Positions 44,533-64,000 of a DNA stretch of 64,000 bases are shown here, in pieces. How positions within the stretch are numbered: the first letter of the stretch is position 1; each line of letters opens with the position of its first letter. Made by a program: the position numbers and the translations under genes. Under the pieces are notes generated by a model. That model made no database searches. It was not told the origin of the DNA and saw only the letters and a list, made by a program, of their open reading frames with translations. This DNA comes from Eledone cirrhosa (Eukaryota): the NCBI GenBank assembly GCA_964016885.1, contig OZ024741.1, positions 363,692,001-363,756,000 on the forward strand, read 5' to 3'.

Positions 44533-44749
44533 AACGAAGGAAATGTGGTAAGGAACCAGGTGGACCATAACGCACCAAAGTACTCAATACTTGAGGTAGT
44601 AGAGTGGGTAATAGGAACCAGTAAGACCTCGACAGCTGAGCTCAAGCCGTTTCGACGGCTAATTCTGGACCTTATTAGGTCCAATTCAGGTTCAGAATTA
44701 GCCGTCGAAACGGCTTGAGCTCAGCTGTCGGGGTCTTACTGGTTCCTAT
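44533..44749. mobile_element. Miniature fold-back insertion of the 59691..61222 family
   Basis: Arms 44611..44672 / 44688..44749; left end matches 59691..59830. Confidence 0.8.
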
Positions 44750-59694: not shown

Positions 59695-59783
59695 AAGGAA
59701 ATGTGGTAAGGAACCAGGTGGACCATAACGCACCAAAGTACTCAATACTTAGGGTAGTAGAGTGGGTAATAGGAACGAGTAGG

Positions 59784-59879
59784 ACTCCGACGGCTGAGCT
59801 CAAGCCGTTTCGACGGCTAATTCTGGACTAAATGAAAATTTTTATCCTGGTATTTGAATAGCCGAGCTTCTCAGGGGGT
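59784..59879 (-). ncRNA. Hammerhead-like motif (CUGAGAA core)
   Basis: Mirror of 61113..61208. Confidence 0.58.
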
Positions 59880-60464
59880 AATTCCATATATGGTAAAAGT
59901 GATTGTCACAAGAATTGGTCAAAAGTTTGTTGTTGAGACATAATAATTCTATCATGGCAATTTGTGGAGGGAAGGGGTAGCTGAACCTGCCAGTAGAAGA
60001 AAGAGGGAGAGGGGGTGGAAGAAACCCAATCGTGCGTTGATAGTGCCAAATCCAGCTGGGCAGGAGGTCAAAGAAGATACTAGGGGGGGGGGGAGTCGAA
60101 ACGATAAGTAAAACAATATGGGGTAAAAATATAGAAAAATAGCGGGAGTGTTAAAAAACAATTAAATGTAAAAAAAAAACAAAAAAAAAAACAATTTCTG
60201 GTTACTATAACCTAAGGACAGCTATCAAGTCTCTCACTGGTACTGCTGGACTAAAGAAAGGTTTACTAGGTGGGATGGAATTATAATGAGACCCTTTTAA
60301 GAGGTATAAGTAAACAACCGAATAAATCTTACGGTGACGGGTCACCAAGTGGGGGCCAACATACTAAAGAAACTACCACGAAACAATTATTCAGAGTCCC
60401 GAGACCAGTACGAAATAAAGGTTTCCACCCCAGGCACAAGGCCAGCAACCACCCGGTGCTAAAA

Positions 60465-60500
<36 letters not shown>

Positions 60501-61112
60501 TTAATACGAAATAATAATTCAGAATCCCGAGTGCCGCCACGATACAAAAAATCTAGTGCAAACTACATAAATGCTCGTACGAAGTATATGTAAAATTTGA
60601 TACGGAAAATTAATTCAAAATCCCCCCCCCCCACCTCCCCCTAAAAAAAAAAATACTGATATACGAGAAATTCAAGCAAAGATACCACTAAGAAATATAG
60701 AAAGCACGGAAAAGGGGCAGCCATCGGGTAAGAAGGCAAGTATCCGGGGTCTAACACATCTGCTATAAAAAGTGGAGTCGGCCAAATCTATCATAGAATA
60801 GGGGAAGGCGGTGGGGTTACATTTAATTGTTTTTTAACACTCCCGGTATTTTTCTTTATTTTTACCCCATATTGTTTTACTTATCGTTTCGACATCCTCC
60901 CCCTCCCCCTAGTATCTTCTTTGACCTCCTGCCCAGCTGGATTTGGCACTATCAACGCACGATTGGGTTTCTTCCACCCCCTCTCCCTCTTTCTTCTACT
61001 GGCAGGTTCAGCTACCCCTTCCCTCCACAAATTGCCATGATAGAATTATTATGTCTCAACAACAAACTTTTGACCAATCCTTGTGACAATCACTTTTACC
61101 ATATATGGAATT

Positions 61113-61208
61113 ACCCCCTGAGAAGCTCGGCTATTCAAATACCAGGATAAACATTTTCATTTAGTCCAGAATTAGCCGTCGAAACGGCTTGAGCTCAGCC
61201 GTCGGGGT
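61113..61208 (+). ncRNA. Hammerhead-like motif (CUGAGAA core)
   Basis: acccc-CTGAGAA-gctcggcta...tagccgtc-GAAA-cggct(tgagctc)agccg-TC-ggggt. Confidence 0.62.
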
Positions 61209-61218
61209 CCTACTCGTT

Positions 61219-61267
<49 letters not shown>

Positions 61268-61307
61268 TTATATATATATATATGTATGTATATATATATA
61301 TATGTAT

Positions 61308-61870
61308 ATAGTAAGTACAGTGAATTTTTTGAAATTTATTTTGGAACTTTTTCTTATTTGCTAAACCTTGATTATATATGTTCTGGCTCGTTAATTTATT
61401 AACCTGCCATTGAACCACATTGGCATATGGTTGGACAATACATGTGTCCCTATACGCTTTTTGCGTGTAGGGATATATACTTTATTATTATTATTCTCCT
61501 CTTGGTCGAGATAAAATTTGGTCGTTTTGACTGCTGCTATTTATAGTGGTAGTAGACTGACCCCCCCCCCCCTGCCTCTGCTTCTATCTTTACACACGTC
61601 ACTGGACAGAATTGCTTCCACATCATTCTTTCTCATCTCGGGAACAATTTTGAATAGCGCCAGTTCGTAATTTGAACTCGGGAATTTTATATTCTCCGAG
61701 TGAAAAGAACCTTCTAACGAGAGTTTATCTTTTCAATGGAAGCCCGCAAGGACTTTCCATTTATTTTTGAGACTCGAAACCGATTCGGTAAAGGTAACCA
61801 TAGTAAGTACAGTGAATTTTTTGAAATTTATTTTGAAACTTTTTCTTATTTGCTAAACCTTGATTATATA
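61308..61870 (+). mobile_element. Retrozyme-like 492-bp unit with ~70-bp terminal redundancy
   Basis: 61308..61378 repeats at 61800..61870; one HHR-like motif; no ORF. Confidence 0.75.
61709..61795 (+). ncRNA. Hammerhead with a G5A core substitution
   Basis: acctt-CTAACGA-gagt...actc-GAAA-ccg(att)cgg-TA-aaggt. Confidence 0.65.
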
Positions 61871-61880
61871 TATATGTATG

Positions 61881-61961
<81 letters not shown>

Positions 61962-61972
61962 ATATATATATG

Positions 61973-62005
<33 letters not shown>

Positions 62006-62148
62006 GTGTATATATATATATATGTGTATATATATATGTATATATATATGTGTGTATATATATATGTGTATATATATATGTAAATATATATGTGTGTGTA
62101 TATATATATATATATGTGTATATATGTATGTATATATATATGTGTGTG

Positions 62149-62179
<31 letters not shown>

Positions 62180-62274
62180 GTGTATATATATATATATGTG
62201 TATAAATATATATATGTGTATATATATATATGTGTATATATATATGTGTATATATATGTATATATATATATATG

Positions 62275-62384
<110 letters not shown>

Positions 62385-62391
62385 GTATATG

Positions 62392-62422
<31 letters not shown>

Positions 62423-62488
62423 GTATATGTATATATATGTATATATATATATGTGTATATATATGTGTATATATATATGTATATATAT

Positions 62489-62524
<36 letters not shown>

Positions 62525-62699
62525 GTATATATATATATATATATGTATGTATATATATATGTATGTATATATGTGTATGTATATATATAGATATGTATGT
62601 ATGTATATATATGTATGTATGTATATATGTATGAATATATGTATGTATATATGTATGTATATATGTATGTATATATGTATGTATATATATATGTATGTA

Positions 62700-63534
62700 T
62701 AGTATTAATTATACTATTTATGGTTATGCAAATACAAAAACCTTTTGCAGTTATATATATTTTTATAAACCCTAAATAGTGGTAGGCAGTAATATATTAC
62801 TACCTTATTACCAGTAAGTTAAATAGCTCAATGTAAAAACATCAGATGATTTACAGAGCAGTTATATGAATTATAAGAATCAAAGAACTGTTCAAAACAT
62901 TTTTATGCTTACAACTGTTTCCTCCAAACCGAGGTTTGGATTCTTCGGAGCAATTTATTATTGAATGAACACTTATATGACCTCCTTTTCACCCAAGAGA
63001 CATACAGATACATATGCAAATATTGTGGATCAACATTCATTATAGCATTTAGAGTGGCAGTACACACTTAGAGATTACATTCATATTAAAAGATACAATC
63101 AAAAATACAGGTTAAAATACAACATGAAATTAAGCGGTTATATAGTGCAAAGGTTATATGTGTGGCAAGCACGTGCGTCTTGTTTATATAGTGTAGCAGA
63201 GAGTTACGTGTAATAGAAGCACTTAAACAGGTAATCGAGAGTGTTAAGGTGGTTGATCTGGTGATGAATTCTTTATATGATTGTTATAGTCTGTGTGTGG
63301 AGAAATAATATAAGTATTAAAAATAGTGTAAGCATTAAAAATATTGGAAATGCGTAGCGAAGAACATCAGACTACGATTCTCTAACTGGATTGTCAAACA
63401 CCCAATATCGAATCGTCGTAGATTATGTGAGGGGCATATAATCTGAAAAATACGCTCCCCTGACTATGAAAATGTCGCAGGGCATGAAATCCATATCATC
63501 GCTTCGCTACGCATTTCCAATATTTTTAATGCTT
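62700..63534 (-). mobile_element. Orphan PLE-type 3' fragment ending in a 33-bp inverted repeat
   Basis: HHR at 62906; inverted repeat 63330..63362 / 63502..63534. Confidence 0.5.
62906..62952 (-). ncRNA. Hammerhead (CCGAAGA core variant)
   Basis: tgct-CCGAAGA-atccaaacc(tc)ggtttggag-GAAA-cagttg-TA-agca. Confidence 0.65.
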
Positions 63535-63535
63535 T

Positions 63536-64000
63536 CTGGGTAGTGACCACCGGCTTGTTATGAGTGAGGTCCGGGAGAGCTTAAGAAAGAGCAAGGCTAG
63601 GCCCCGGAGAGTAATCTATGACAGGGGAGCTTTCAAGGAAAATGATAAGCTACAGGAAAGGTTCACAGTGGAAGTGAGGAACAAGTTCAGTGCTCTGTGT
63701 GGAGAGGCAGAGGAGAGAGAGATTTGAGGGACTGAGGAGAGTGTGACGAGGAGGTACGGGTACTTCACCAGTGCAGTGGCGGAAGCAAGTGAGACCCTGG
63801 TGCCGAGGAGAAAGAACAAAAGGAAGCACGTCAGCTCTGCAGACCCAAAAGTGTGTGCAGCCAGAGAACACCTGAAAGCTGCCAAGGACCAATTCTATGC
63901 GGAGGAGAGGAAGGAGAATGTGGAAGTGATGAGGAAATAACTCTGTATCGCTTACACTGAGGCCAGAGAGGAGGCACTGATAGAGAAGATCAGAAGTGTG
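63536..64000 (+). mobile_element. Degraded internal fragment of RTE family B; runs off the window edge
   Basis: Aligns with 46321..46794, with stops. Confidence 0.9.

Follow-up and report, generated by a model that had tools for sequence, protein, structure and literature searches.

In the 64,000-nucleotide stretch of Eledone cirrhosa DNA that we analysed as a whole (the window), positions 61308–61871 hold an insertion of 564 nt, which corresponds to 1.14 head-to-tail copies of a 492-nt unit. When 61308–61870 was compared with the window by BLAST, we found that 61308–61378 matches 61800–61870 over 71 nt (98.6% identity, one mismatch, E about 1e-30). This terminal redundancy sets the period at 492 nt, confirming what an initial annotation of the locus had read as a 492-nt period with about 70 bp of redundancy. 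Neither a further copy of the unit nor an inverted partner arm was found by BLAST elsewhere in the 64-kb window. In unit coordinates, the arm (locus label L152) has its 5' end at 491 and its 3' end at 70. It is adjoined on both sides by TA-rich microsatellite, at 61223–61307 and from 61872 to about 62700. Since the unit reads ATAG where it meets the (TA)n flank, the boundary can be placed only to within 3 nt: the ATA at 61308–61310 and the last few bases of the insert can be assigned to insert or flank alike. The unit has a GC content of 37.8% and contains no open reading frame above 70 aa, and ARAGORN detected no tRNA in 60000–64000. The features of the locus are the following:

61223–61307, no strand: 5' TA-rich microsatellite, either target or shared tail, whose first base adjoins the 3' end (61222) of a different repeat
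61308–61871, + strand: insertion, a single arm of 564 nt or 1.14 units (BLAST, mapped ends)
61308–61378, + strand: redundant block, copy 1, 71 nt (unit 491–492 plus 1–69), 98.6% identical to 61800–61870
61559–61575, + strand: poly-C tract of variable length, exceeding that of most copies by 6 nt (comparison of copies)
61709–61795, + strand: type-I hammerhead-like domain (descriptor scan, covariation; no Rfam match)
61716, + strand: A at the core G5 position, rare in the family (copy comparison, 24-mer counts)
61800–61870, + strand: redundant block, copy 2, the true 3' end of the arm (BLAST)
61801–61855, + strand: predicted long imperfect hairpin (unit 492–54), just 3' of the ribozyme (pairing preserved in over 90% of 151 copies)
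61862–61871, + strand: GAUUAUAUAU (unit 61–70), the family's fixed 3' terminus, which runs into (TA)n (953 exact junction 26-mers, control 0)
61872–62700, no strand: long 3'-flanking microsatellite of (TA)n/(TG)n (sequence)

The repeat that ends at 61222 belongs to a different family. It forms two head-to-head inverted arms at 59770–60171 (− strand) and 60817–61222 (+ strand), which are 97.5% identical and each end outward in (TA)n (...GGUCCUACUCGUUCC); the 492-nt unit lies in the TA tract right after the + arm. At 44612–44748 of the window we also saw a minimal two-armed insertion, made of two back-to-back inverted 59-nt pieces of this neighbouring family's 3' end with 93% identity. Such back-to-back pieces of the same 3' end, 55–65 nt long, were present at about 30 of about 250 fetched loci.

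The conserved core of the hammerhead ribozyme is C3 U4 G5 A6 N7 G8 A9, followed by G12 A13 A14, the pair A15.1–U16.1 and H17; its G5 is essential for catalysis, and three helices surround it, of which helix I is open-ended in type I. A descriptor scan over both strands of the window (128 kb) returned one hammerhead-like arrangement only, at 61709–61795 on the + strand, so that the motif proposed earlier, with its CUAACGA core (G5A), is indeed present. Helix I pairs ACCUU (61709–61713) with AAGGU (61791–61795) and is followed by the core CUAACGA (61714–61720), in which A occupies position 61716 where G5 is expected. Helix II pairs GAGUUU (61721–61726) with AGACUC (61770–61775) and carries an inserted hairpin at 61735–61761. 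G12–A14 are provided by GAA at 61776–61778, helix III has 4 bp (ACCG-AUU-CGGU, 61779–61782/61786–61789), and A17 is position 61790. The cut would fall after 61790 (unit 481|482), a prediction made from the motif only. With the second redundant block beginning at 61800, the start of the insert lies about 9 nt past the equivalent cut, in agreement with the initial annotation, or 9–12 nt past it when the ATA ambiguity is allowed for.

At gathering score, no Rfam hammerhead model matched anywhere in the whole window. At E ≤ 10 there was no hammerhead match on 61200–61900, nor on a copy that carries G5 (L025, 1840–2020), and Rfam returned nothing but chance hits between TA repeats and miRNA models. 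The minimum-energy fold differs from the hammerhead fold.

A search of the 3.0-Gb Eledone cirrhosa assembly yielded 2,763 first-look candidates for the unit on many contigs, and the 40 of them that were scored are 93–96% identical over the full unit. The family is young and abundant, with a unit length between 485 and 492 nt. Counted genome-wide, 364 exact core 24-mers have G5 and 6 have A5, the window copy being among the six, and contigs of four public runs with three organism labels have G at the position of 61716. The family consensus is therefore CUGACGA, a point that the initial annotation had raised. Among 42 aligned ribozyme regions A5 is unique to the window copy, in which we also counted three further private substitutions, besides an extended poly-C tract and the one mismatch between its redundant blocks. 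In a 422-nt comparison of four A5 copies, at least three sequence backgrounds were distinguished, and one A5 unit stands in tandem with a G5 unit. Because of these separate backgrounds, G5A most likely arose after insertion. The rarity of A5 and the other private changes of the window copy make one more post-insertion change the economical reading. Of the two explanations offered earlier for the A5 core, read-through of an already dead ribozyme or later decay, the second is hence the better supported, and the window copy is slightly decayed.

A hammerhead core comprises 15 highly conserved nucleotides, as described in PMC6155905. In nearly all of 118 distinct copies of our family the core reads CUGACGA...GAA A...U A, and the core positions (CUGANGA, GAA, A15.1–U16.1 and H17) are kept in subfamilies down to 71% identity; the copy at 61308–61871 departs from the consensus by its A at G5 (61716). 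The 23 pairs of the hammerhead fold are formed in 94.4% of 2,670 cells across these 118 copies, compared with 16–57% when the partners are slid, and two-sided changes were counted in 66 cells versus 13 ± 3 in shuffles. One pair of helix I is U-A in 100 copies and C-G in 10, while two pairs of helix II occur as G-C 102 / A-U 10 and as G-C 92 / A-U 15 / U-A 3. The hairpin inserted in helix II likewise covaries (U-A 86 / C-G 25). In helix III the pairing is kept with one-sided changes only and no compensatory change. Few separate events, inherited among the subfamilies of a single genome, lie behind this covariation; its compensatory changes lend support to helices I and II without proving the fold. 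From motif and covariation, and with an Rfam match absent, we infer that the family is a hammerhead family, whose cleavage is predicted from sequence. In some subfamilies the tip of helix III is a perfect palindrome (CCGUACGG, CCGCGCGG); by analogy, such tips would permit a dimeric mode as in the newt.

Further pairings surround the domain. Positions 61702–61708, the 5' flank of helix I, can form 7 bp with 61728–61734 in the internal loop of helix II. With one covarying pair (A-U 102 / G-C 11), this pairing is kept in 92.6% of cells and is part of the minimum-energy structure; one subfamily disrupts it, leaving 34 cells unpaired at a single pair. It could be a tertiary lock or pseudoknot, or it could be a competing fold. 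The ribozyme domain is placed between the conserved 3' hairpin (unit 492–54) and helix I. Over 90% of 151 copies preserve the pairs of this predicted hairpin, and all changes in it are one-sided. In addition, AAGGU at 61791–61795 (unit 482–486) can pair with a second ACCUU at 61865–61869 (unit 56–60), which would close the hairpin. These pairs are kept in more than 95% of the 151 copies and show G-U/A-U changes only. The alternative pairing of AAGGU could switch the RNA between one fold for cleaving and another for copying.

To read the ends of the family, we turned to its genomic copies. In the 30 best loci, every copy has its 3' end either at unit 70 (...CCUUGAUUAUAUAU) or at about 179–186 (...CUUUAUUAU), followed by (TA)n, and the 5' ends differ. 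The sequence at unit 61–70 (GAUUAUAUAU, 61862–61871) is the putative site at which reverse transcription is primed. Sample 1 was picked by the 3' junction alone in order to avoid bias, using the 953 exact junction 26-mers (control 0) together with interrupted-tail junctions. We fetched 190 places and mapped 189, and after removal of five duplicates and three arms at assembly gaps, 181 arms were kept. Sample 2 was anchored on the other 3' end (184 matches, control 17); here 100 places gave 79 arms, with 20 chance matches and one dropped.

The arms of sample 1 range from 24 to 1191 nt, with a roughly flat distribution up to about 700 nt and rare lengths beyond. Their 5' junctions are flanked by TA repeat in 82 of 181 cases, by an inverted partner arm in 52 and by other sequence in 47. 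In sample 2, an inverted partner was present for 60 of the 79 arms. The partners follow a strict pattern. Those of unit-70 arms end 3' at 170–186 in 45 of 52 cases and at 70 in none, and those of unit-179 arms end at 61–78 in 47 of 60 cases and at 170–190 in none. Tandem arrays reach up to three units (L010). If the arms are read as reverse-transcribed laps of a circular or multimeric template, the 71-nt redundancy of the window copy is the excess of its arm over one lap, which in other arms amounts to 43 to about 200 nt, and not an LTR-like fixed terminal repeat.

Several smaller features of the length and end distributions are worth recording. The number of arms in sample 1 drops from 10 at 650–699 nt to 2 at 700–749 nt, and such a sharp drop above about 700 nt is not what an endlessly rolling circle would predict. 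Seven arms from several subfamilies end at unit 351–361 (61660–61670 in the window) after 664–694 nt, on their second lap, and four more arms end there after 205–209 nt. This position could be a defined template 5' end or a second-lap barrier. A pile-up after a single lap, the signature expected of circle closure, was rejected, as lengths of 465–513 nt are not enriched over their neighbours. We likewise do not rely on a cluster of partner-arm 5' ends at unit 99–117, which was seen for 10 of 52 in sample 1 and was weaker in sample 2 (5 of 79). Finally, 5' ends pile up just 3' of the variable poly-C tract (unit 253–276), with 12 of 181 at unit 265–276.

The initial annotation had held that the 5' end of the template was made by self-cleavage, and the 5' ends of the copies bear on this directly. 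They are spread over the whole unit in the 260 arms of the two samples, both of which were chosen by 3' ends. A start exactly at 482 was found once in 181 arms (L146) and once in 79 (L338), and 156 of the 181 arms in sample 1 read through the cut site. Around the cut, sample 1 has 5 ends at 479–485 versus 2.6 expected (P = 0.12) and 15 at 472–492 versus 7.7 expected (P = 0.011). The top 3-nt window of the unit is 490–492, with 7 of 181 arms (window copy included) versus 1.1 expected; its nominal P of 1.4e-4 becomes borderline after correction for 492 windows, and none of the 79 arms in sample 2 starts there. The top 12-nt window is 480–491, which contains 13 of 181 ends versus 4.4 expected in sample 1 and 3 of 79 versus 1.9 expected in sample 2. 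Other hot spots of sample 1 are found at 271–276 by the poly-C tract and at 350–361 in a hairpin.

Part of the sample 1 excess overlaps a general surplus of short arms. In sample 2 the cut is about 190 nt from the start site, so that short arms do not interfere; here the 150–199 nt bin holds 13 arms versus 5 and 6 in the neighbouring bins, and 10 of 79 ends fall in 474–8 versus about 4.3 expected (counted by hand from the end list). Ends at or just after the cut outnumber ends just before it. Ends just upstream of the cut (470–481) also occur and count against a cleaved template, because such a template cannot yield them. Among seven comparable edges of TA-like words, 491 has 5 ends versus 0–3 at the others. 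We asked whether ATA microhomology alone could account for the start at 491; given these 5 ends versus 0–3, it is not sufficient by itself, being otherwise neither excluded nor proven.

There is thus no sharp peak at the cut, and what we observe is a diffuse, about 2-fold excess over about 30 nt at the 3' edge of the ribozyme. The proposed clustering of 5' ends at the cut did not appear, and a template end made by self-cleavage is not borne out: the insert spans an uncut 61790|61791, exact starts at the cut are single cases in either sample, and most arms read through. Random 5' ends, which had been named as evidence against self-cleavage, are largely what the copies show, the exceptions being the 2-fold excess near the ribozyme 3' edge and the start at 490–491, seen in 7 of 181 arms and then in 0 of 79. 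That the copy starts 9 bases past the cut is likely due to ordinary truncation during reverse transcription rather than to self-cutting. The excess of 5' ends (13 of 181 in 480–491) is compatible with cleavage of a minority of templates and subsequent trimming.

We consider it probable that 61308–61871 is a single, slightly decayed copy of a 492-nt non-coding hammerhead-motif repeat in (TA)n, made by a Penelope-type reverse transcriptase on a circular or multimeric template and ended by ordinary truncation. The enzyme would start at the fixed AU-rich RNA site at unit 70, and the growing arm would pass the cut site once, leaving 61790|61791 intact. On its second approach the arm would end at unit 491 after 564 nt, little over one lap. 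This end, at +9 from the cut, falls in the zone where ends are about 2-fold commoner, likely through pausing of the enzyme at the folded domain. Since the insert spans the uncut site, its template must have held that site uncut or religated, which points to a circle or a multimer.

A linear RNA template, cut at unit 482 by the hammerhead, would explain the start at 61308 in another way: the cDNA would run off the end and lose about 9 nt, or be joined to the (TA)n target through the closest ATA microhomology. We regard this as unlikely. It draws on the prominence of 490–491 as the top 3-nt window (7 of 181 versus 1.1 expected, nominal P = 1.4e-4), on 480–491 as the top 12-nt window (13 versus 4.4), on the lead of 491 among the seven TA-like word edges, on the surplus of ends at or just after the cut over those just before it, and on the two arms that begin exactly at 482 (L146, L338). 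The 3-nt hot spot is, however, borderline once all 492 windows are corrected for and is absent from the independent sample 2 (0 of 79), and the excess in sample 1 partly coincides with the general excess of short arms. Moreover, the window insert itself holds the uncut site, 156 of 181 arms read through it, exact starts are limited to 1 of 181 and 1 of 79, and ends at 470–481 lie upstream of the cut. Alternatively, the motif could be non-catalytic and the "cut site" meaningless, the element being no more than a structured passenger, like a SINE, of some retrotransposon that targets (TA)n. This appears quite unlikely to us. All core positions are kept across subfamilies down to 71% identity, helices I and II show the compensatory changes that the hammerhead fold requires, the arrangement is the single one of its kind in 128 kb of window strands, and type-I hammerheads in AT-rich repeats of a few hundred bp are described as experimentally active in other animals (PMC7229834). 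These points have to be set against the missing Rfam hammerhead match, which extends to G5 copies, the different minimum-energy fold, the unusually long insertion in helix II, the helix III that shows no compensatory change, and a sister family that seems to have a tRNA T-arm-like module in the place of the ribozyme.

The 1.14-unit structure might also stem from a DNA-level event, either as the remnant of a satellite array or by microsatellite slippage, and not from reverse transcription. Arrays of up to three units do exist (L010), and the flanks are recombination-prone simple repeats. Yet hundreds of dispersed copies on many contigs have the same exact 3' end with individual 5' ends and flanks, the inverted two-armed copies pair the two fixed 3' sites, and shared flanks, as in segmental duplicates, were seen in 5 of 189 places only. 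We hold a DNA-level origin to be very improbable, because the decay of arrays would yield neither fixed 3' ends nor the pattern of paired sites.

Returning to reverse transcription on a circular or multimeric template, a more specific version would have a single 492-nt circle template both arms of an insertion. The two cut ends of the (TA)n target would anneal to different AU-rich sites (unit 70 and about 179), and the folded ribozyme would act as a mild barrier. This proposal is based on the 112 two-armed insertions, in which the two sites are paired and never the same one twice; it is possible and we put it forward tentatively, as a rather doubtful one. If true, the genomic copies would be a readable record of a Penelope-type enzyme copying a ribozyme circle.

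According to Craig et al. 2021 (PMC8557442), insertions of Penelope-like elements have a footprint of four traits: they are truncated 5', form partial tandems, lie next to an inverted 5'-truncated copy and favour (TA)n. The copies of our family show all four. The window copy shows truncation, a partial tandem and TA flanks, and no inverted partner. Genes with a GIY-YIG domain are plentiful in this genome, with 10,596 first-look candidates, of which 150 of 150 scored above the Pfam cut-off. The domain is C-terminal in the open reading frames, with a weak RVT_1 match upstream. Ten of 30 GIY-YIG loci (L227–L251) share a 3' terminus ...CCCUGUUUUCA, situated about 660–920 nt past the endonuclease domain and followed by (TA)n, and this shared terminus indicates that the autonomous elements use the same kind of target. 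BLAST revealed no sequence common to the unit and the GIY-YIG loci in any of the 30 compared out of the 10,596 candidates, with 1.5 kb of flank on each side, and the descriptor scan found no hammerhead in these 30 loci. The open reading frames upstream of the 189 mapped arms are mostly translated microsatellite and stray LINE fragments. We infer that the enzyme derives from a Penelope-like element.

The closest relatives in kind are the animal non-LTR retrozymes as described by Cervera and de la Pena (2020, PMC7229834). Like them, the unit is short (a few hundred bp), non-coding and AT-rich, contains a single type-I hammerhead and lacks LTR, PBS and PPT; its thousands of copies take the form of monomers-plus, dimers and short arrays. 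Differences exist in size, their unit being given as 170–400 nt (150–450 bp) and ours, at 485–492 nt, lying slightly above, and in helix II, where our family has an inserted hairpin of about 45 nt and a motif that escapes the Rfam models. For our family, cleavage and RNA circles are predictions from genomic copies. The fixed 3' start sites, the targeting of TA microsatellites and the inverted partner arms are not described for animal retrozymes in the passages of PMC7229834 that concern us here. In all testable features the element matches the animal non-LTR retrozymes, save for the slightly larger unit and the expanded helix II.

For animal retrozymes a derivation from Penelope-like elements has been argued in a preprint (Li, Clavereau and Pollet 2026, 10.64898/2026.07.22.740005). 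The insertion footprint that PMC8557442 gives for these elements is alike, and the GIY-YIG elements of this genome also end at (TA)n; our unit differs in having no open reading frame and no similarity to the 30 GIY-YIG loci compared. The hammerheads of Penelope-like elements are described in PMC6155905 as minimal forms without helix III, whereas helix III has 4 bp here. Plant LTR retrozymes (PMC4918200) resemble the family as non-autonomous retroelements whose RNA is thought to be excised by hammerheads and circularised. According to that source they carry type III hammerheads in real LTRs, 4-bp target duplications, a PBS and a PPT, none of which was seen here. The hammerhead repeats of newt satellite 2 and of schistosomes, as covered in PMC6155905, share the type-I hammerhead with a short helix III and the tandem arrangement in the genome. 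The dimeric mode described there for newt satellite 2 would in our case follow from the palindromic helix III tips, and their long satellite arrays contrast with the dispersed microsatellite insertions of our family.

A pile-up of 5' ends at the cut would have recorded directly in the genome that animal retrozymes self-cleave during their life cycle, a step so far deduced from RNA work. The 492-nt family carries no sharp footprint of this kind. Most templates were copied through the cut, which fits circular or multimeric templates. The family joins the already known animal non-LTR retrozymes and shows a Penelope-type insertion footprint. What is gained is a defined family whose canonical core lends itself to a cleavage assay, together with two fixed priming sites and a map of 5' ends that can be compared with the pause sites of reverse transcriptase in vitro.

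A further observation concerns a sister family, which shares GGUAACCAUAGU with the unit (C1, 76325528–76325574, and about 40 further places). A search pattern for TA-flanked 5' junctions near the cut gave about 8 usable junctions, being swamped by this family and by multiple rows per locus. Just upstream of GGUAACCAUAGU, at the place of the hammerhead, the sister family has a tRNA T-arm-like sequence (UCCCGGGUUCAAUCGGGG), and many of its copies share one start point, (TA)n followed by AAGUUUAUCCCGGG.
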